Shown one piece after another: positions 44,121-63,802 of a DNA stretch of 64,000 nt. The stretch comes from an uncultured delta proteobacterium. GTDB lineage: Bacteria; Desulfobacterota; Desulfomonilia; Desulfomonilales; Desulfomonilaceae. The stretch is from assembly GCA_963789265.1 (NCBI GenBank), contig CAWBKB010000001.1, positions 1,152,001-1,216,000 of the forward strand, written 5' to 3'. The translations under genes and the position numbers were made by a program. Every line of letters starts with the position of its first letter. Position 1 is the stretch's first letter. The notes under the pieces were generated by a model. The model was not told the origin of the DNA, did no database searches, and saw only the letters and a list, made by a program, of their open reading frames with translations.

Positions 44121-44253
44121 GTAAGCGTTCACAAGGAACTTCGTAATCGGCATCCCGCGTCGCGGGACCGATCCTACCGAGATCATAGTCGGGCCGGCGT
44201 CCCTGCCGGTTAATCCTGGTACCCGGTAAACCGCTTTCTCGCTGAACAGTTAC
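44121..44253. mobile_element. IS66-type MITE
   Basis: Ends GTAAGCGTTCAC / CTGAACAGTTAC; flanks TGGGAATC / CAGGAATC; related to 54262-54406. Confidence 0.78.
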
Positions 44254-49043: not shown

Positions 49044-49234
49044 GCGCGGCTTCCTCCTGTACTTGCTTGACCTTCCTTAAGGGCCTACCACAGGCTTGGC
49101 CTTTTTGTGCTCGACGATACCTCCAACCATTTCTTACTCTCGCAATCGGCTCTCGGTGGTGTATACTATATTTTTAGCATCCTATGCACACGATGTTCGC
49201 GAATTCGTCTGCCAATTGTGAGAGGGGTGACCAG

Positions 49235-49655
49235 ATGGCTGATCTCGTGAGATTCGGGGTATCCATCCCTGACGATCTGCTGGAGAAGTTCGACATCCTC
49301 ATCGCGGAACAAGGCTATACTAACCGGTCCGAGGCTATCAGAGATCTCATACGGAATCGCTTTGTCGAGGACGAGTGGAGCCGCTCGGAAGAGGACGTCG
49401 TCGGCACTGTGACAGTCGTCTATAACCACGAACAGAGCGATCTGGCCCAGAAGCTAACCGAAATCCAGCACAGAAAGCACGATCTCATCATTTCCTCGGT
49501 TCACGTGCATCTGGATAAGCATAATTGCCTGGAAGGTACTTATTATGAGGGGAGCGCCCGCTGAGGTGAAAAAGGCAGGGGAGCTTCTCATCTCCACTCG
49601 CGGTGTGAAGCACGGCAAAATCACTATGACCACCACCGGAAAAGAATTGGATTAG
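49235..49655 (+). CDS. nikR: nickel-responsive regulator NikR (frameshift near 49535)
   Basis: [28 protein letters not shown]; the shifted frame continues VLIMRG..GVKHGKI. Confidence 0.92.
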
Positions 49656-50891: not shown

Positions 50892-51295
50892 ATGGCCGAC
50901 GATTTCAAAGGACATGGGGACTTTATCAAGCAGCACGGCGCTTTTTGCTGGTCCGAATTGATGACGACCGATGTGCCGGCCGCGCTCGGAATTCTACACT
51001 AAGCTTTTCGGATGGACCACCCAGCAACTCGAAGAAGAATTCGGATCGTACGTATTGGTAAAGGTGGGCGAAAACGAAGTCGGTGGCGTCATGGCAACGC
51101 CTCCTGAAGCCCAAGGCATGCCGCCGATGTGGGGCGTGTACGTGACGGTCGACGACGTAGATGCAACGGCCAAAATGGCTGGCCGAGCTTGGCGGAAAAA
51201 TATTGGTTCCGCCAAGAGACATTCCGAACGTGGGGCGTTTTTGCGTAATTCAGGATCCTCAGGGGGCAGTGATCTCAGCGATCACAACCAAGTAG
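50892..51295 (+). CDS. VOC/glyoxalase-family protein (frameshifts near 50988 and 51181)
   Basis: HGAFCWSELMTTD / FYTKLFGW..WGVYVTVDDVDA / ELGGKILVPP.DIPNVGRF..IQDPQGA. Confidence 0.85.
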
Positions 51296-51338
51296 GGTAT
51301 GTAGGGCGTACCTGGTGTCCGCGCAGGGCAGCCACACA

Positions 51339-51600
51339 GAGACTGTCTCAAAAGTGCGGATCGAGTCGAGACCGTGACACGAAAGTCGCTAGAGTTCTGG
51401 TTCCCAATCCCGTGTGTCGCGGGACTGGGAACCAGAAAACTTTGGTGTGCATTTCGTTGCCCTCACCCCAACCCTCTCCCAGAGGGAGAGGGAGCCATTC
51501 CAGAGTGGCTATTAGAGTCACCTCGCCCTTTGGGAGAGGGTCAGGGTGAGGGGATTACGTGTTACGATGTCCTCCCGTTCAAGAGTTTTGCAACAGTTTC
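51339..51600. mobile_element. 262-bp IS1182-derived MITE
   Basis: Ends GAGACTGTCTCAAAA / TTTTGCAACAGTTTC; 4-bp duplication CACA inside the REP GGGCAGCCACACAGGTTTGCCCC. Confidence 0.85.
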
Positions 51601-52509: not shown

Positions 52510-53082
52510 TCAATTCGACACATGCTTGAGGACCGCCGATTCCACCACCAGATTCCCCTGGTTCCTGCTACTGTAGCCGTCCCCCGTCCAGTACTCCATG
52601 TGATATCCGGTGCCGCCGGAGCCCGTACCTGCCTCCCAACCGGGCTGACTCTTGTTGCTGTCGTCATAGCCCTGAATCCACTCATTAACGTAATACTTCC
52701 CGATGCTTGGACCGGTTGACGAAGGGGTTAGCCCATTTACACCTTCTTTTCCCGGAAACGGGTATTGGCTGGGGTTGGGGACTGGGCTCGTGCTGTCCGC
52801 ATCACTTGTGTTAGTCGTTGGAATCGACCTTACCTGAGGGCCGGAATTCAAAGGCCCGGCGCCGGTGTAGCTCGGAGGATCCGGAACATTGCTATTCTTC
52901 AGATCGTTGAAAGCTATGCCGCATGCCCCATCTGCGAGGTTGAACAGCTTGTTGTAGTTCTTTATCGCTCCGGTGAATTGCAGGTCCAGCCGGGACATTT
53001 GCATAAGACCGACCCCGAGCAAGCTGATCACGCCAAGAAACAAGAGAACTATGACAACTGCATATCCTTGGTTGTTATTCAT
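52510..53082 (-). CDS. pilX: PilX-like minor pilin
   Basis: MNNNQG|YAVVIVLLFLGVISLLG (class III signal without E5); last gene of the operon. Confidence 0.75.
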   Translation of the reverse strand: MNNNQGYAVVIVLLFLGVISLLGVGLMQMSRLDLQFTGAIKNYNKLFNLADGACGIAFNDLKNSNVPDPPSYTGAGPLNSGPQVRSIPTTNTSDADSTSPVPNPSQYPFPGKEGVNGLTPSSTGPSIGKYYVNEWIQGYDDSNKSQPGWEAGTGSGGTGYHMEYWTGDGYSSRNQGNLVVESAVLKHVSN

Positions 53083-53097
53083 CTGTCATCCCTCTTC

Positions 53098-54433
53098 TCA
53101 ATCGTTTGGATACTGGGCAAGGACCAACGTCCGCGGATTGACTCGTATGATTCTCGTGGCTCTTTTCGTTGTGATGGCATTACCTGCCTGAACCTGCTGG
53201 TTCGGGGAATTACTGTAATTGATCGTGTACACGATCGTTATCTCCACGTACCTCAGAGCGTAGGTAGTGGCAGCCTGCGGATTGGTAAGGTTGCAGAAAG
53301 TATCATCGGTGGGAGCCCATTTTTGGGACGATTGAGGGGTCAATGTGCTCGTTGGTATAAACAGGCCCTTGACTTGAAAATCTTGAACGCTGAAGAACGA
53401 ATCTTGAACTGTTGCGGTAGTATTTCCGCTTGTGCCCCCAAGGAATGACTGGCCGCTTTGCCCGCTTAGCCCGTTTCTCAGAATCTGCCCGGGTACTAAA
53501 ATCTTTCCTCCTGTAGAATCTGTTTGCGGAGGTTGGAAGCTGTAAACCACAGCCGGAGTGAAATAATAATTCCCGGCGGGGGCAGGTACTGCACGCGATA
53601 GGAGAACCCGTAAGGGTAAACTGCGTAACCCAGCCGCTCGGCGGGTTTGCCATAGTCTGACCTACAGTGGTTGGCGTGGCCGTGGGTGTAGTGACGCGCT
53701 GGGCACTGGGCCTTGCGGTCAAAGGAGTTGTAGGGTTGGTCAAATAAATGACCCCGCCTATATTATACTGGTTTGCCTGGGCTTCAGCCTGCGAGGGGGC
53801 CGGAATGCTGAATTTCTGTGAGATTATGTTTGACGAGGTTATAGGAGTGGCAGTGTACAAGTTGTACACAAGCGCAGGCCACATCGCGAAAGGCTTTGTG
53901 AGATTTTGCCCGACCCCGACAATGTCGCCTGTCGTGGGGACCGTGCTCTTCAGAAACTGGCCGTAGTTCACGTAGAGAGTATCGTAATAAGGCTTGTTTG
54001 CCTCGGGATAGGTTGTGTTTTCCGTGTCGAAATAATAGGCCATCTGCGGATAAGCCGATACACCGTAGCCCATCTGAATCACATCCCGCTGTATCTGCAT
54101 CAGGGCAAGTTCAACGCTGTGGCGGGTGGAAAGCTCCTTTGCACTCTGGCCTCCTCTCTTACTTTGAAAGAGATAGAAGCCGATCACGATGCTGAAGATG
54201 AGCGCGACTATGAACAGGGCCACCATCATCTCCACTATGGTAAACCCTCTTGAGTTATTTCGTAAGCGTTCGACGGTAACTCTGAGATCGGCATCCCGTA
54301 TCGCGGGACCATAGTAGGACCGGCATCTTGCCGGTTGATAGTGGTACCGGCGTCCCTGCCGGTTGAGCCTGATATCCAGTGGGCCGCTTTCTTGCTGAAC
54401 GGTTACGTTCTTTCTTTCCAAGTGCGCCTCCAT
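53098..54433 (-). CDS. pilW: PilW-like minor pilin (frameshift near 53580; MITE in leader peptide)
   Basis: RG|FTIVEMMVAL, IQRDVIQMGYG; ATG overlaps the pilV stop (TGATG). Confidence 0.78.
54262..54406. mobile_element. 145-bp IS66-type MITE inside pilW
   Basis: Ends GTAAGCGTTC / GAACGGTTAC; 8-bp duplication GTTATTTC / GTTCTTTC. Confidence 0.87.
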
Positions 54434-55146
54434 CAAGGCTTCGCCGATGCCTGGTTGTTCCCCGGTACCAGGAAATTGGTCAGTTCGGTCCGAAATGGAC
54501 AATCCCACGGGTCCTGCCCCGAGCAAAGGCCGTGCCAGTCTCCTTGCGGATCCCGCCATCCTGATGACCATCCCACTGCCACGTAAATCTTCCATGTATT
54601 CCCGCCACAAGGCTTGATTATGCTATTGACTTCCTGAGAATCGCTAACGATCCATCTATAGAAAATGCCGGCATAATTCTGGCCGTCCGGTTGAGAGTTC
54701 GTACCATAGTACCCGATGCCTTCAACGCAACTGCCCACGCAATTGGGAGGGGACGTGTCCCTGGAGACCTCATTAAACGGCCAGTCCGGGCCCCAAAAAT
54801 CTGTGGTAAAGTTGGAAGCCAGGGGGTCCGGAACCAAAGTGAAATTGGTAGTGTTGTTAAGGTCCGAAACTTTTTTTATGGAATTTGCGGAGGACAGTGC
54901 GCCTTTTAATTGCTCAAATATTTCCTGAGCAACAACGTCCGCAGATTGCTGCTGAACTGAAACCGCGTTGTAATTCAGAGACACCTGGAGCAGCTTTGAA
55001 AGCGCAAATATGCCTACGGTGAGAATGAACAGAGCCACCATGGCTTCAACTAAGCTGAATCCTCTATTTCCTGGAGCTTCTCGCATGTTGGACCGATCCT
55101 TGAAAAAGTATCCGTGACTATTGAGACGGATATGCCTTCGTTGCAT
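54433..55146 (-). CDS. pilV: PilV-like minor pilin (alternative start 55086)
   Basis: RG|FSLVEAMVALFILTVGIFAL. Confidence 0.78.
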   Translation of the reverse strand: MQRRHIRLNSHGYFFKDRSNMREAPGNRGFSLVEAMVALFILTVGIFALSKLLQVSLNYNAVSVQQQSADVVAQEIFEQLKGALSSANSIKKVSDLNNTTNFTLVPDPLASNFTTDFWGPDWPFNEVSRDTSPPNCVGSCVEGIGYYGTNSQPDGQNYAGIFYRWIVSDSQEVNSIIKPCGGNTWKIYVAVGWSSGWRDPQGDWHGLCSGQDPWDCPFRTELTNFLVPGNNQASAKP

Positions 55147-55325: not shown

Positions 55326-56171
55326 TCACTGCGCAGCCCCTTGCAGGATTTTCCCCATATAAGTGAGGGTGAACTGGACCTTTCCTGCGTCTTTCGCCAT
55401 GCTGATTATCTTCAGCGTGTGGTTGGTGGGTTGCCCGTAGGTGTACGGAGGTACACTGGCCGACGTAAAGGACGACGACACCGGAACTCCCATCCAGTTG
55501 AACGGGACGAACACTGCCGGATTCGTCGAGTTGTACGGCGAAGCGTCAACCGCTGATCCGGTGGTCCAATCCTGGATGTCGAACTTTCCATCATTGTACT
55601 GATATTCGGAAATCTCCACCCAATATTGTTTCCAGGCGCAATTGTAGGGGGACTGGTTACAACTGGAATCTCCCAACGGACAAGGGTAGGTGGAAACGGT
55701 ACAAGTTGGTGCGGCTGACCCCCCGCCGACTCCGGGTTCATTCCCCGTTGGGTTATAATTTTCACCTGACACAGCCACGGATGAGGTATGAGCCAGAATG
55801 CAATAGTAAGTCGACCGGCCGTCGTTTACGATATCGCCGACATTGTATGATGTGTTCGGCTGCCAGAGCGGGTTTTGCTGGGCCAGGGCAGCGGACAACG
55901 CCGGTCTGATCAAAACCCATGTTGTGCTCTGAGACTGAATAGCTCTAACCTGGGCCAAGGAAATGGCATGGTTGAACTCGCGAACCGTATTGCTGAAAGC
56001 ATACTCGTCCTTGTAATCCATCAATCCCTTTGCCATGATGACTAATATTATCGCGACAACAGTGAGAACCACCATCAGCTCAACCATCGTAAACCCCCGG
56101 ACCGGCCAGGGGTCGGGGCGGGTTTCAAACCCGGCCCCTCTCTTTTTCCGGGATTGCCAGACCCTCGTCAT
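55326..56171 (-). CDS. FimT/FimU-like minor pilin with CBM5/12-like insert
   Basis: RG|FTMVELMVVL, AQVRAI, PFNWMG; WQPNTSYNVGDIV..YYCILAHTS. Confidence 0.78.
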   Translation of the reverse strand: MTRVWQSRKKRGAGFETRPDPWPVRGFTMVELMVVLTVVAIILVIMAKGLMDYKDEYAFSNTVREFNHAISLAQVRAIQSQSTTWVLIRPALSAALAQQNPLWQPNTSYNVGDIVNDGRSTYYCILAHTSSVAVSGENYNPTGNEPGVGGGSAAPTCTVSTYPCPLGDSSCNQSPYNCAWKQYWVEISEYQYNDGKFDIQDWTTGSAVDASPYNSTNPAVFVPFNWMGVPVSSSFTSASVPPYTYGQPTNHTLKIISMAKDAGKVQFTLTYMGKILQGAAQ

Positions 56172-56551: not shown

Positions 56552-59500
56552 TCACTGCTGCGGCCCTGTTTCCCGCCACCCCTGAACCTGGAACGTCCCC
56601 GGGATGTTCACCTTTGTGACCGAGATGTTTCCCAAGCTCGTCTGAACCGCAACCTGGTTTCCGTTAAGGAGCACGGGCGAACTCGGTACTCCGCTCCCCA
56701 GATTCACCTTCTGCCCGTATAAGAGGGCGCCGTGAGTACCCGTTGTATTGAAGTTCTCCACAACCAGCGTTTGGTCTGCGATCGGGTAGAACCCGGCCGT
56801 AAACGGCTGACACATATAGTCGAGCACGTACAAGTATCCCGTCCCACCGGCCTGGCAAAGGTCGTTCTGATTGGCACCGGGATTGGCAGCCGTGGGGCTG
56901 AATGAGGTGAAAAATACCAGCCCTCCGGCAATCAGCGGTTTTCCAATGACCCTCTCACCGGGAGTTGTCAGATCGAAAATGCAATCCCAGCAGGCGGGGC
57001 CGTTCGGATCGCGGATGGACCCGGTGCATAAGGGGTTATTCGCGTCACAACAATCCGGCACGGCATTGCCGCTCGAATCCGTTGTTTGTTGCACCCAGGT
57101 GCACCCGGAATGCGAAACTGTTGCACCGGAATTAGGATCGATTGCCGTCCACGAGCACCCCGAATCCATCGAATAAGGGGTACTCGTAGAAGAAGCCGGG
57201 TTGGGGGTCGTACTATCCGTAGCTCCTATGCACCTGAACGTGGTGGCATCACAGTCCGGTTTTACATAGATGTTCAGATTCGAACCCGACACAGTGCCTT
57301 TAAGCACGGTTGACGCGGTCCAGTCGGTCGACACTCCTAGTTGGCTGAAGTCTATGGGGTCCCGCAGATTGTACAAAGACATCTGGGCCGTGTCCGTAGC
57401 ATCACTGTTGGTCCCGTTTATGTTCTCGTATTTCCCTCCGGCTATGAGCACGCGCATGGCATTCCCGTTATTTCGCTCCCAGCTTGCCGCAGGTTGAATT
57501 TGGAACGGCTGGCGGCCGGAACGATACCAGTCGGAAGCGTACTGTTGGGCTCCGGAAGTATTCCAGGGTATGGGTTTGGTCCTCCAGATATCCACGTATA
57601 TTCCGTCATTGGAACCGGAACCCAGGCTTACAAGGGGATCGAAGTTCAACTTTATTCCATAGAACACGCCGTTCATATCACCAATGTAGATGGAATCTAC
57701 GTATCCGTCTTCACCCTGTGTGGCGCCTACCCGGTTGGTGCCCTGATATGTGCCCAGATTCCACAAATCCAGGGCCAACGGATCGGACATGGCGTACGGG
57801 ACCTCGGCCTGGCAATTCTGACCGTTACTGTCGCAACCCCTGTCCTGCACCGGGAACAAAGTCTTACTGATATTGTATATGCTGGGCCATACGTATTTGA
57901 ACGCATTCATGCCCGTTTCAATGTCCAATGCCAGAAGAAACGTTCCGTTCAGGGAATGCTTGAATCCGTCAACATAGAACTGCGGCCAGGTCGTTGGAAA
58001 AATCTCGGGGATGAGAGTGGGGTCGTAAATGTGAGCGCCGCCTCCGACGAAGGCCAGATTCCGGACACCGCTCACATTAAGGTTGGCCGTGCTGCAATTG
58101 CTTGGCGCACAGATTTGGGTCTGTCCTGTTCCGAGGCCCAGAGGGCAATTAGACAACGTGAGGCCGCTGGGGAGCCCCACCCGGCCCACATAAGGCCTCG
58201 ACCACGAAACTGGTACGTTCTTCACCATGTTGTAAGCGTAATCGGTAGCACTGAACGGCTCCCACGGCGCAGTTAGCACAGCATCGCCACCGAGGACCGA
58301 CTTAAGCTCAGACTGGCAGCTCTGCACACACGCGGAGGTAAGGGTCGTGCCTACACACGCCGCGCAGCATCCGCTACACGAATTGCTTGGTGCCTGTTTG
58401 TTCCAATACGAGGGCGGAAATGTGGGGGCCACACATTTTGAGATGTCTCCGGGATTGGTGGCGTTACCCGTCTGGCAGGATGCCGCGAAGGATTTCGCTG
58501 CCGCGTTCAAATCGAACGTGACGACCATGTTCTTGAACACCGAGTATTCCCACTGAAGCTTGGGCGTATAGTTGCCCGAAGAATCCTTGTGTCGCGGGTC
58601 CGTGACATCCAGGCAGAAATACGTGTCCCCGCCCTCACGCTCGCCCCCCAGTATTACGGTGTGCCAGGGCCAAACGGAGGACGCGGCAGAGCTGTTGGCC
58701 GTGTACTCATTGTCAAAGAATACGGTCCATGCTGTGGGCGCCAGGTCCACCATGAAGCGGTGTTGGCAACCATTTGAGCTGGGACAGTCAGGACCTGTAG
58801 TGGCACCGTAACTCGAAGCAGCCAGGTACTGGAGTTGATCCAGAAGATTGGTCGGAATGTAAGCCCACTGTTCCCGACCGATTTGTGCTATCCGCAGAGC
58901 ATCTGCTGGACTGGTGCTGCTTTGCACATCGGTCGGTTTTATTGCCCACGTCTGGTTAACAGTGTCATAAACGGACACCAGAATCGCATGGACCATGCCG
59001 TCGTTTGCGCCCACATACACCATCTTGTCCCTATACCGAATTTGTGGGTCGGTGCTGCTGTGAGCCGGTGGCGCGGGATTGCAACTCCCGGAGTTGGAGC
59101 TGGTATTGTTGGGATCCAATTGACGCCAGTTCAGGAAGTACTTATTAAATCCTACCGATTCAGCAGCAGAGTTGCATTGAACCACCCCCACCTCTTTGCT
59201 TTGGACAAGTGCCTTGGTCTGAGACGGGACTGCGCCCAGAGAAGGAGGCCCGACTATCACGGGCGTGGAATAGACGACATCACCCAGTATCCAGTAGGAG
59301 CCTGCCCCCCCTTCCTGCCTCGATCTGTACCCGGATTGATCTAGTCCGAGGACCCAGTTCACGATTGCATCTCGCGTGGTCGTGTCCGGCACCCCAAGAA
59401 CAGTGGGGGAGATATTGTTAGTGTTGAATAACATGAGCTGAGGGTTCCCATTGGCGTCCAGCACAGGGTTCCCGTTTGAGTCCAGCTTCTCGGTATAGAC

Positions 59501-62003
59501 CAGTCTCGTCGTGGGGGCCGGAGGCTGCAACGGAGGTTGCATAGCCGAGTCCCAACAGTTTCCGGGGGGATGGCCGCTGATGATTTGCTCGCAGAGCGTG
59601 TCCCCGGGATAATTGAGGAAATCATAATTTCCGTTTCTTGTCCGGCCAATAAGATTCCAGATGGCCGAACCACAGAAAACGGCACGCATCGGCGGTATCC
59701 GTACTTGGGGCCCGGGCTTCGAATGCTCCCCGTATTATGAGGTCACCTTCAGCGCTTTGCTGCGCGACCGTCGCGACAGCACTGGACGCCGCAGTCTGCT
59801 GGGTGATATTGGTCAGTATGTTCTGCAATGCCTGCTCTATTAGCTCGCCGTTTGAAGCATTAAAAAAGTGGTCCGGTACGCCTTTGCAACCGGAAGTAAA
59901 GTTGCTGGTACAGACCGTAGTGCCGAGGTCCCATTCCTCACAGCACGGTTTGTTTGGGGACGATGAAGTTGGACACTGGGATATGCTGAAAGTTTTTGTA
60001 GCGCTGTTAAAGCTCGTGCCGGTCATAGGCCACGGATAATTCGAGGGCGTGCAGTTTGGTAATGCATTGAACCCCCCGAACATGGCCTCCCATTGCAACG
60101 AGTTGACCCCGTAGTTGTAATCCGGGTCACTTGTGCTGGCGAAGCAGAATATCGCGAATATGTTAGCGAAAATGGGGGTTCCCCCGGAACCGCTGACATC
60201 GGTCCTGAGGCCCTTGCCGTTATTGGCGCCCGCGTGTAGTGTCCACACATTCGGCACCGGATCTACAGTACTGCCCGAATTGTCGTACCAGTTGCCGTCC
60301 GTGAGGTGGATTACATACGTCTGCCGACAGGAAACAGCCTTCTGCACGCCGCCTACCACCGCGTAATATGGATCGTTCGGGGCGTGCTGGTAGTTCATGA
60401 GACCTGAGTTTATGCCATTCCCGTTCTGCTCCAGATAATTTATTACCTCCCCGAATGCCTCGCCGGTCGGAGTGCCGGAGTACGGCCAGGGCTGCTGGTA
60501 AAGGCTCCCGGGTGGATCGCCTTGGTCCTCTGGAGTTTCACCTTGGATGGTCCTGATAAATTGGTGCATGTCCGTGTACTGGCCGCAGTAAGCCAGGAGT
60601 TTCCCTTTATGGTCATCGGTGTCACCCTTATAGTACATGAATCCGAATCTACCCTGGGTCCAACTTTTTCTGACCACTCCTTGGTTATCAAGATCGGTGG
60701 GAGCGATCTTGATACGTACCCGCGGATAAGGAATGGACCCGATGCTGCTATTCGTCTGACCGGCGTTATTGCTTGATGCCGGGCTCAAGTTGACATTGGA
60801 GGTAATTTGATACGTACCGGTTGCCTCTTTGCTGTTCATATCGAAAGCGTAAACGTAATATGTCGTGCCGCCGGAGGCTCCGGGGAGCTGAAGCTGGGCC
60901 CTTGCGGGACTCCCGCTCACCGTTTTCAAGGTTGTTTGAGTGGGGTTGGAAGATGTTGACACTCGCAGTTGCACATTCGATGAGGGGGTCCATGTTCCGG
61001 TCAAGCTTATGTCTACGTTTGTGGTCTGGGTCAGGGTGAAGGTCCAAGCATCGTAGTAGTTATTGTTCGAAATGCCGGACTTGCCCTTGGTCAGTGCTCC
61101 CTTGTAAATTCCCCTTATACTTATGACAAGGTCTTTCTGGGAATAGGACGGGTCTGTTTGGGTGCCGGTCGCGCTGGAGTAGTCGTTCGGATAATCGACA
61201 TTCACCCCACCAGGCGCTGCCTGGGTCCATGTGGCAGGGCGGATGTAAAATCGCGCCCAGAGCTTGTTCGTCTCGTAAACGCTTCGCCTTGCCCCCTGTG
61301 CCGTCTTATAGCAACTGCCGCTGGCGTCGGTGCAATTCAGCTCATTGTTGTTGGAATCAAATCCGGTGGCATTTGTGTCGGTTGAATCATAAGTCTTCCC
61401 ACCGATAAGCGCTTGCAACGCGGCGTCAATCCTGCAGGTGACCGCCCAATTCAGCACCGCTCCGCTGAGGCCTGCTTGTACAGAACCAATGTTTGGCGTT
61501 GTTCCAGTCGGCGTTGTGGAACCAATTGGATAGAAATATCCGCCACCGGGAATACCGCATGGGTTGGTGGGGTCAGAGCCGTCGTCGTATTTGTAATACT
61601 GAGTATTGTCAAATAAGCCATAGTAGTACGGACTGTATGTGGTTTGGTTTGTAGGATCGTAGGCCGCGGCATTTACTGCGGACATCCCGCTCGTGCTGTC
61701 TGTAGAATCTTCGTCCAGGACCTGACTGGAGCCGTAGGTCCAGCAGCAGCCGCACGAGCATCGGCTGCAATTGCTGGTGCATGCAGTCATGGTGGCGGGG
61801 AGCCCGTAATAGGTCTGCTCCTGCATGCTTCCAGAAAAATCCATTAGGAGCAAGAGGTTTGGGTCGGTGGAAAAGGCAATCTGCGGCGGCACCTGGCATT
61901 GAGGAGTGTAAGTCTGGGAGAAAGCCCCTTGAGGGCAAAGAAGTACGAGCATCGCTGTCGCGAATACTGATAGCAAAACGGCCTTCCTGATTCTATCTGA
62001 CAT
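56552..62003 (-). CDS. pilY1: PilY1/PilC adhesin, ~1800 aa (frameshift near 59635)
   Basis: Signal peptide; vWA MIDAS-like DFSGSM, GTP, LTDG; LGDVVYSTP, YVGANDGMVHA, EQWAYIP, DGYVDSIYIGD.NG; C-terminal WRE. Confidence 0.87.
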
Positions 62004-62457
62004 GGCCAACCCCTGTACCAGACTGAACATTGCCAACCCCCGTACCACCAGACTGAAGTGCAAAAATTACAACACTGTCGTTCTTGTAACAGACGATTAC
62101 GTTAGTCCCGGGTCCAAGTATACTGAACGGCACACTGGCGCCTGCTTCATTCAGCACCGAGACAGTCTTATTGGAAAGAGTTACCGTGAGACCCGGGGTG
62201 CCGAATTCTCCGGGGAACACAAGGCTTGAGGAGGTTACCGAAGCCAGTTGGGCCGGCCCGAAAATTGAATACCCCGCGGCAATGTAGTAACCAATTTGCG
62301 TCTGGACAGTGGTGGATGTCTGGACCGATTGCCCCAGCCCCGGGATCGCGCTGGATTGCGTGCCCGCAGCCCAGCACGGGAGCACCAGGGCAATCAACAG
62401 CCCCAGAACCGGCAGTGCCAGGCGGCACAAACTACGTGATGTTTTGAGTGTTCCCAA
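61993..62457 (-). CDS. hypothetical exported protein upstream of pilY1
   Basis: AGGAGG then TTG at 62457; signal peptide; the longer ORF call runs through REP repeats. Confidence 0.65.
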   Translation of the reverse strand: MGTLKTSRSLCRLALPVLGLLIALVLPCWAAGTQSSAIPGLGQSVQTSTTVQTQIGYYIAAGYSIFGPAQLASVTSSSLVFPGEFGTPGLTVTLSNKTVSVLNEAGASVPFSILGPGTNVIVCYKNDSVVIFALQSGGTGVGNVQSGTGVGHVR

Positions 62458-63802
62458 GAAACAACCTCCTTGCTCACAGTAGGGTGTCCCGCGAAGCGCG
62501 GGACTGCCCGCCGATTTATAGTGGGGTGGGCATCCTGCCCGCCGATTGATCATCGTAATGGCCATTTCGCCGGCGATTCGTAACCCTGGACTCCGAACCG
62601 GGCTCCCGTCTTGCTTCCTGGTGGGACAGGCATCTTGCCTGTCACTTGATGACGGGCAAGATGCCCGTCCCACTGCAGGATGCCCATCCCCACTGAAAGA
62701 TGCCCGAATGAAAACTCTCAAAAACTCATGCGATGGGATAGGTGTAAGGGCGCCACGGACCGGCACCCGATTGCGAATCTGGACTTGCGAATCGAAGAAG
62801 GGCGAAATAGATGCACGACGTTGGAGTACAGCAACGACAGGTGATCTGTGATTGCCGGCAACGGATTGACATGCGCAATTGGAGCGAAAGTCAGATAATA
62901 GCTATGGAAAAGGGTCAGGAGGCAGGTGAAGTCCACCAGGAAGCTTGGCCTCCATGCCCAGAACAAACCAAAATCCAGCCCGAATAGCTCCGAATCTAAT
63001 CCGCCATCCGAGTACTGAGAAATTCCAATGACAAAATTTATAAACGACTCCATCGGTTGAGTCCTCAGTGATCCCATTTGCGAAAGTTGCCAATCAACGA
63101 CATCACCGTTGCTTCGCGCGTCCGGCTGCTTTCACGCGGAAACGCCCTTGGGCTCTGGGGTGGATCGCAGCAACAATTGTGCCAACGCCAAACTTAGAAG
63201 CTCTGAGACGATTCGAAGCGCTGGGCCTCATGTTACGCGGATACAATTCGGCCACCCTAATGTGACAAAATGCGACATCTTTTCGCGGTGGCAGACTTAT
63301 GAGCGTGATATCACACGACATAAAGCCGTCAACAAAGTGGACAGATTTTCAAAGACTATTAAATTATTTTATAGGGAAAACAGGAGTTGAAAAAATGAGG
63401 GGTGATATTATGAGCATAGCCGCGTCTCGGTCATCGAGGGACCCTTCGGCAAGATTTTCAGTGATCCATGCGGTTCCACGCTGTCGCGGTGTTCACCGCA
63501 TCTTACAGGAACTTACGCGAGGAATATTGTGTTCCTTGTCATTGCGAGGAGTGAATGGTGGGACAGGCTTCCAGCCTGTCTATTAGGGATGACGGGCAAG
63601 ATGCCCGTCCCACCGGCAATGTAAGCGACGTTTAAAGGAAAAGATTGCTTCGTCCCGCGAGACGCGGGACTCGCAATGACAATCTCTTCCCCCGCGCAAA
63701 CGAACGATTAGTCCCAAAACTTCTTTCCGATTGACACCTTGCCGGCCAGACACTAATCTTTGGCCGCGCCTCACTTAAGTGGATATGCGAGGAGGTCAGG
63801 CA

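Follow-up and report, generated by a model that had tools for sequence, protein, structure and literature searches.

Minor pilins of the type IVa systems share a glycine at position -1, a phenylalanine at +1, a glutamate at +5, a hydrophobic helix, and a hydrophilic, basic leader, and their genes lie in the order fimT-pilV-pilW-pilX beside pilY1 (PMC4471445, PMC10191384, and PMC4832360). The signal recognition particle (SRP) recognizes the helix, and prepilin peptidase (PilD) cuts after the glycine on the cytoplasmic side. The leader stays in the cytoplasm, is the only part that is cleaved, and varies in length (PMC4471445 and PMC10191384). PMC4471445 gives a range of 6-26 residues for these class III leaders; the 18-residue leader from Streptococcus sanguinis is already described as "much longer than canonical".

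In-frame insertions of short repeats or MITEs into genes are already known. Rickettsia palindromic elements (RPEs), for example, have a strong palindromic fold across the whole element. In three reviews (PMC10969869, PMC3184786, and PMC3733652), RPE, ERIC, BOX, BRE, MITEb/e of Anabaena, and QMITE1 are in-frame repeats of about 150 bp in genes that are apparently functional; the passages on these elements do not name signal peptides or leaders among the places where they insert. In the main texts of the open-access literature, we came across no MITE described within the leader of a prepilin. Also close to the repeat described here are insertion sequences of the ISBst12 group of the IS66 family. 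ISDge4 from Deinococcus geothermalis belongs to this group, has the end GTAACTGCTCAGCA, and makes an 8-bp repeat (PMC12898284); 8-bp repeats for IS66 are also tabulated in PMC3281130.

We analyzed a window of 64,000 nucleotides from an uncultured delta proteobacterium (assembly G000) and used the genome of a congener (G001) for comparison. On the minus strand, the window contains a cluster with a pilY1-like gene (56552..62063), a fimT-position pilin (55326..56171; a 26-residue leader from the nearest start), a pilV-like gene (54433..55086; the usual 9-residue leader), and a pilX-like gene (52510..53082; PF14341 above cut-off). Between the pilV-like and pilX-like genes lies another minor pilin, which is in two frames in G000: the mature protein begins with F-T-I-V-E in the 5' frame (53303..54244, minus strand), and its 3' part is in a second frame (53098..53550, minus strand). 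In G001 and in the ortholog P0002, it is a single open frame. The pilin matches PF07963 (31.3 bits; cut-off 21.2) and TIGR02532 (23.2 bits; cut-off 16.3) and has Gly-1, Phe+1, Glu+5, and the hydrophobic tract of a class III pilin. Because there is no PilW-specific model among its Pfam or NCBIfam matches, the name PilW reflects gene order only. G000 also encodes PilD (with both aspartate motifs, as judged by eye), traffic ATPases, and a secretin, as well as a second minor-pilin cluster that includes a pilW paralog with a short leader. As side observations, the fimT-position pilin (55326-56093, minus strand) bears a carbohydrate-binding module (CBM_5_12; PF02839 above cut-off), and an exported-looking open reading frame upstream of pilY1 (61996-62766, minus strand) has a 5' region that reads through several REP-like units, so that its start is uncertain.

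The pilW-position pilin differs from the class III pilins in the reviews in its leader, which would have 59 codons (54245..54421, minus strand, ending in Gly-1) and is mostly transposon-derived. A 145-bp MITE with IS66/ISBst12-type terminal inverted repeats (54262..54406, minus strand; ends GTAAGCGTTCGACGG and GTAACCGTTCAGCAA) provides 48 in-frame codons (VTVQ...VERL) and one more base. It lies between the two copies of an 8-bp target duplication, which match at 7 of 8 bases: GTTCTTTC on the start side (54407..54414, minus strand) and GTTATTTC, with the mismatch, on the cleavage side (54254..54261, minus strand). Inside its ends, the MITE consists of REP-like units, including two of the GTAG/GTGG type with a spacing of 27 nt (54311..54364, unstranded); G000 also has genes for Y1 transposases. 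A preliminary description of this DNA had reported a 145-bp element with an 8-bp duplication that adds 153 nt (51 codons) without a stop. The element is real, as similar duplications across the family exceed those in shifted controls (see below). The addition of 145 + 8 = 153 nt is borne out as well: the minus-strand frame is free of stops from upstream of the MITE to F-T-I-V-E, whose first codon starts at 54244. The duplication on the cleavage side, together with the last base of the MITE, recreates R-x-N ahead of S-R-G.

The pilW-position gene probably starts at the TTG at 54421 (54419..54421, minus strand), not at the ATG at 54433 (54431..54433, minus strand), judging from conservation and pairing with the ribosome. 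The preliminary description had chosen the ATG, which overlaps the stop codon of pilV. The overlap is there, but G001 has GCG at this position, which rules out the ATG as a conserved start, and it is a possible second start in G000 only. In contrast, G000 and G001 both keep a Shine-Dalgarno-like GGAGG (54427..54431, minus strand), five bases, and the TTG, and the N-termini of the orthologs P0006 and P0002 match this start. Pairing with the motif that we take to be the anti-Shine-Dalgarno sequence is strongest for the TTG (-9.3 and -9.5 kcal/mol in the two genomes, versus -4.0 for the ATG). With the TTG as the probable start, the leader without the element would have 8 residues (M-E-R-K-N-S-R-G) instead of 12; it is still canonical, as had been claimed. 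Neither genome has a further ATG, GTG, or TTG from this TTG up to the cleavage site.

We think it likely, with a probability of about three in four, that the MITE is translated in frame as part of a 59-residue leader, which would then be removed by prepilin peptidase at Gly|Phe. The insertion is well supported at the DNA level; translation and cleavage are predicted. The 59-residue leader has 13 lysines or arginines and 6 aspartates or glutamates. With a GRAVY of -1.27, it is hydrophilic and basic, and it contains no hydrophobic stretch (the best 11-residue mean is 0.33). It has 64 residues in G001 and 50-64 across four lineages, and the leaders of 59-64 residues are more than twice as long as the range in PMC4471445.

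The MITE belongs to a family. A loose search of G000 for the end motif found 83 inward-facing pairs that are 60-600 bp apart, and 30 of the 83 are flanked by 8-bp duplications in which no more than 2 bases differ (15 are perfect). With the right flank shifted in six controls, only 0-2 of the 83 pairs have such a duplication. This gives about 30 copies, which are 86-337 bp long. Ends of the same type bound a 3,403-bp unit elsewhere in G000 (C3:479401-482803) with a perfect 8-bp duplication. Within it is a 1,586-bp insertion sequence that encodes one IS66 transposase (above cut-off for PF03050 and NF033517; 232.8 bits for NF033517, with a cut-off of 180), whose gene is in two frames in the assembly. 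The ends of the pilW MITE (GTAAGCGTTCGA and GTAACCGTTCAGC) match those of this insertion sequence (GTAATCGTTCACC and GTAACCGTTCAGC) and resemble the end of ISDge4. The link to IS66 that had been proposed is thus supported by an IS66-transposase element with matching ends and by the published ends and 8-bp repeat of the ISBst12 group. The 3,403-bp unit also contains a passenger frame of 494 codons, for whose product an export signal is predicted, and is closed by a second end.

Like ISDge4 (PMC12898284), the pilW MITE has imperfect GTAAC...CAGC ends, an 8-bp duplication, and, in G000, a partner with a single-ORF transposase. Unlike the insertion sequences of the ISBst12 group, it is non-autonomous, is only 145 bp long, and is full of REP-like units. 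This copy is probably immobile because its ends and its duplication have decayed. It differs from RPE in having insertion-sequence-type ends, a duplication, and a transposase partner, and in lacking the palindromic fold (z = -1.4 against shuffles). Also, the peptide encoded by RPE stays in the mature protein, while the pilW insert lies in a segment that is predicted to be removed; and nearly half of the RPEs are intragenic (PMC10969869), while among the 30 MITE copies in G000, the pilW copy is the only one whose site is spanned by a long open frame. The sole other copy that interrupts a long frame is a 280-bp MITE with a perfect duplication (C4:61780-62059) in a frame of about 645 codons; its length is in frame, and it contains stops.

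The subfamily to which the pilW MITE belongs was pre-adapted to this frame, since it is free of stops in all four of the other copies that are complete and have a duplication. The nearest sister copy is intergenic (44121..44253, unstranded). It is 133 bp long, 70% alike, and open in the same frame. G001 lacks it at the corresponding site and is shorter there by 141 nt (133 + 8). Across the 30 MITE copies, the length plus 8 is divisible by three in 11, some frame is open in 11, and both are true of 6. The subfamily pattern matches in 15 of 70 genomes from the family, and of the 30 loci examined, only the pilW one is in a prepilin gene; the duplication filter behind this count missed the G001 copy, which has 3 mismatches.

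A protein search with the pilW-position pilin gave 7 matches with E ≤ 1e-15; NCBI assigns one close ortholog to a Desulfomonilaceae MAG, which places the lineage. An empty site, which the preliminary description had proposed to look for among the orthologs, is present in P0006/P0009. These proteins are 55-59% identical and have the leader MERNNSKG|F, which is the 8-residue leader that is predicted from the TTG once the MITE is removed. More broadly, for 96 of 112 class III motifs at loci from the family, a start lies no more than 15 codons away (median 8), although these loci were fetched with pilin queries and are not a random sample. Just 6 of the motifs have a start more than 22 codons away, and 5 of those 6 are from G000 or G001. 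Sister loci in another genus have 8-residue leaders. Both the empty site and the family loci support insertion into a canonical leader.

The insert is 48 codons long in G000, 53 in G001, 39 in P0002/P0008, and 44 in P0003; the last corresponds to the 133-bp length of the sister copy. It is open in all four carriers, a count that is biased because proteins in databases are open frames by construction. According to the preliminary description, its reading would fail if orthologs already carried the segment. Three close lineages do carry it, but the more distant ortholog has an empty site, so the insertion is old and fixed. The tree of the mature region leaves open whether the four insert-bearing lineages form one clade. 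By insert similarity, G000 pairs with P0002 (0.82) and G001 with P0003 (0.86), whereas the mature regions pair G000 with G001 (0.90) and P0002 with P0003 (0.91). Because the two regions group the lineages differently, the alignments suggest recombination near the cleavage site. Another pilW ortholog, P0005, has an unrelated annotated leader of 81 residues, which resembles a different repeat family of G000; this leader may have been hit a second time, independently. A search of metagenome contigs found one relative with 54% identity, which ends before its leader, and 22 distant matches.

Between G000 and G001, the insert has a dN/dS of 1.38 (15.5 non-synonymous and 4.5 synonymous changes). In contrast, dN/dS is 0.17 and 0.15 for the two parts of the mature pilin, 0.09 for its first 30 codons, and 0.30, 0.21, and 0.18 for the neighboring pilV, pilX, and fimT (P = 4e-4, crude Fisher test). 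The share of non-synonymous changes in the insert is as expected under neutrality (P = 0.62), and 20 of its 145 bases differ (0.138), versus 0.155 in aligned non-coding DNA (P = 0.65). Given this dN/dS and the non-coding-like divergence, next to a conserved mature pilin, the insert is unconstrained in sequence, and the product behind it is constrained. The proposal that the cleaved leader is a safe harbor, with cleavage as predicted, is supported indirectly by this contrast, by the lack of a later start codon, and by the PilD gene.

The open frame itself tells us less. Under neutral change, the probability of staying free of stops is 0.44-0.48, and the probability of no frame-breaking indel is about 0.52, or jointly about 0.24 for the G000/G001 pair. 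The net indel is divisible by three in 33 of 52 non-coding windows of 100 nt. The 27-nt and 15-nt steps between the inserts track the spacing of the internal repeats, so their divisibility by three is partly built in. With a joint neutral probability of about 0.24, frame retention alone is weak evidence, and we rejected stop avoidance and in-frame indels as proof of selection.

The preliminary description had missed a frame change in the pilW-position gene of G000 near 53583-53586, where G000 is 5 nt shorter than G001. The gene is intact in G001 and in P0002/P0008, and P0003 shifts frame near its end. The pilY1-like gene is split in both G000 and G001, at different positions. In a 73-kb alignment, 6 of 16 indel clusters in coding context are frameshifts, 4 of them on the G000 side. 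A short-read contig departs from the assembly at 53586, the position of the frameshift and two letters before the contig's own end, which is a hint that this frameshift may be an assembly error. Another short-read contig spans 54289-54439 without differences and bridges the start-side junction of the MITE, but both contigs come from one study, possibly the source study, and so this match is not independent. The cleavage-side junction is bridged by none of the matches listed (contigs of three soil runs, with patchy coverage). Frame changes in G000 affect pilW (53570-53600), pilY1 (59622-59689), a nikR-like gene (49184-49564), and a glyoxalase-like gene (50971-51549; names by eye). The nikR-like and glyoxalase-like genes are open in G001, which fits with indel errors in the G000 assembly.

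Other repeats in these genomes also lie near or within reading frames. Of 687 REP clusters in G000, 4 are inside open reading frames that look coding on both sides, including the one in pilW (the sensitivity of this screen is 0.94 per side). Two clusters, at C7:48402-48484 and C7:267185-267237, are RPE-like in that they seem to be in frame within long coding-like frames. We found 8 class III proteins in G000, of which 5 have a start within 6-10 codons and 3 do not. The leader of the fimT-position pilin (56094-56171, minus strand) is at least 26 residues long and has a REP-like palindrome in frame (56115..56138, minus strand). The ortholog in G001 (L024) has a different REP pair in its leader of at least 23 residues. 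In the second cluster, the fimT-position gene has no start within 30 codons in G000 (C3:96144, L025) or within 51 codons in G001 (C37, L026). Its upstream DNA is repeat-rich and is unlike between the two genomes; the orthologs in G002 and G003 have MSRSKG. A screen for repeats at N-termini gave 35 cases of read-through, of which 15 had no near start, and we excluded these because their starts could not be fixed.

We also scanned 185,579 GTDB genomes for a right end of this MITE type at 8-38 nt before a class III site. This pattern is narrow and would miss the pilW MITE itself, so the resulting counts are a small floor. There were 113 matches, and a matching left end was found at 11 of them, versus 1.05 expected from shuffles. 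We did not count the other 102, which lack a matching left end (33 have shorter flanks, and 4 of the flanks are under 300 nt). Nine of the 11 two-ended loci are pilin-like, and four loci, representing three events, can be read from an upstream start through the element to a class III site. These are L145 (G086:C10), L153, L202, and L236/L338, from Legionellaceae, Nitrospirota, and deltaproteobacterial MAGs. In the Legionellaceae MAG, the element is 175 bp long and multi-copy, with a duplication that matches at 7 of 8 bases, and the frame has 67 residues. All 23 of the relatives with a match have leaders of 6-13 residues; an ATG behind the element would permit a restart with a 3-residue leader. 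The Nitrospirota MAG has a 112-bp element, also with a 7/8 duplication, and 51 residues. Two deltaproteobacterial MAGs share one insertion, of 108 and 120 bp, with 45 and 49 residues. No target duplication is present in L202 or L236. Among the remaining two-ended loci, L152 and L217 are not pilin-like; L167, L186, L218, and L232 have a start only behind the element; and in L198 the start is inside it. At the locus L172, there is an in-frame stop and no start within a very short flank. The insertion points vary from 1 to 5 codons after the start and from 1 to 9 codons before Gly-1. We lean slightly towards the view that, across phyla, MITEs with IS66/ISBst12-type ends have accumulated repeatedly in class III leaders, which would make these leaders a general sink.

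Could the pilW insert be untranslated? A near-cognate start codon (CTG, ATC, ATT, or ATA) inside the MITE or behind it would make the insert, in effect, 5' untranslated or intergenic DNA. Such codons are in frame in both G000 and G001, neutral drift could have left the frame open (see above), and a review states that most REPs that are annotated at N-termini are extragenic and that the start calls are wrong (PMC3733652). However, a cryptic CTG start has poor Shine-Dalgarno pairing (-2.2 and -3.6), the TTG and its GGAGG are conserved, and the empty-site ortholog begins at the same codon. Even with a start at a CTG or ATC, about 40 residues of leader would come from the MITE. Behind the cleavage site, a GTG at +4 and an ATG at +6 have moderate Shine-Dalgarno-like pairing (-6.3 and -6.1), but starting there would drop Gly-1, Phe+1, and partly Glu+5, all of which are conserved. 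We therefore consider an untranslated insert to be unlikely. We give similarly low odds to a decaying operon, in which pilW would be a pseudogene and nothing would select against the insert. The frameshifts in pilW of G000 and in P0003, the split pilY1 in both genomes, and the pilW paralog in the second cluster all fit with decay. But the insert predates the four lineages, and across them the mature pilin is 81-91% identical and is under purifying selection, with intact frames in G001 and P0002/P0008. Also, frameshifts are scattered across the assemblies, and the short-read contig hints that the one in pilW is an error.

A slightly less probable alternative is that the insert was co-opted, either as RNA that tunes the translation or stability of pilV-pilW or as a peptide that delays processing or serves a separate function. 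The insert has been retained in four lineages and has REP-like hairpins inside, and MITEs can change the fate of an mRNA (PMC10969869 and PMC3733652). On the other hand, the insert is not constrained at the protein or the DNA level, it folds no better than shuffles (z = -1.4 and -1.5), and no Rfam family matches it at threshold. The idea that the insert is there for its RNA fold, or as a member of a known RNA family, is thus not supported. Least probable of all, in our judgment, is that these elements actively target the leader codons of prepilins. Recurrence in three other lineages is what one would expect from targeting, yet only 1 of the 30 copies in G000 is in a prepilin gene, the 30 duplications share no sequence by eye, and insertion points differ among the cases. 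Nor is the subfamily found in any leader of the other family genomes, among the 30 loci examined. On the reading that we favor, insertion into the leader is tolerated and not directed.

The history of the MITE may have been as follows. An ISBst12-type transposase would have acted in trans and brought a copy of 133 bp into the codons for R-K-N, so that the MITE sits in frame five codons after the likely start. The sum of 133 + 8 is divisible by three, and, by chance, copies of this subfamily have no stop when they are read from the first base of the end. As the sequence around the junction shows, the duplication restores basic residues ahead of S-R-G and leaves positions -6 to -1 almost as they were. 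Later, as the comparison of lineages shows, the ends and the duplication decayed, and blocks of 27 and 15 nt were gained or lost with the frame kept. The hydrophilic, basic leader would remain in the cytoplasm, the helix would insert normally, and PilD would cleave. As the mature pilin would then be normal, the insert would be free to drift. It was likely retained in four lineages because the leader and its 51 junk amino acids would be cut off.

For annotation, leader length matters because pilins are classed by it. Gene callers place starts inside the helix, as in the public gene call P0001, or at arbitrary upstream codons. If class III leaders are a recurring sink, then many pilins that are annotated as pseudogenes or with the wrong start would be intact. 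The end sequence of these elements would leave one frame open at both ends (V-x-V-Q ... E-R-L), basic residues in front of the cut would be restored by the duplication, and leaders of 45-67 residues would be removed by prepilin peptidase. Selfish DNA would then be eliminated from the protein, as if by splicing, with no dedicated machinery for it. The four insert lengths in one gene family, with the empty site as a control, are a natural test set for the limits that prepilin peptidase and SRP place on the length and sequence of a leader. For the organisms that carry the insert, the leader would be a route by which selfish DNA may persist within an apparently needed gene while leaving its product unharmed.
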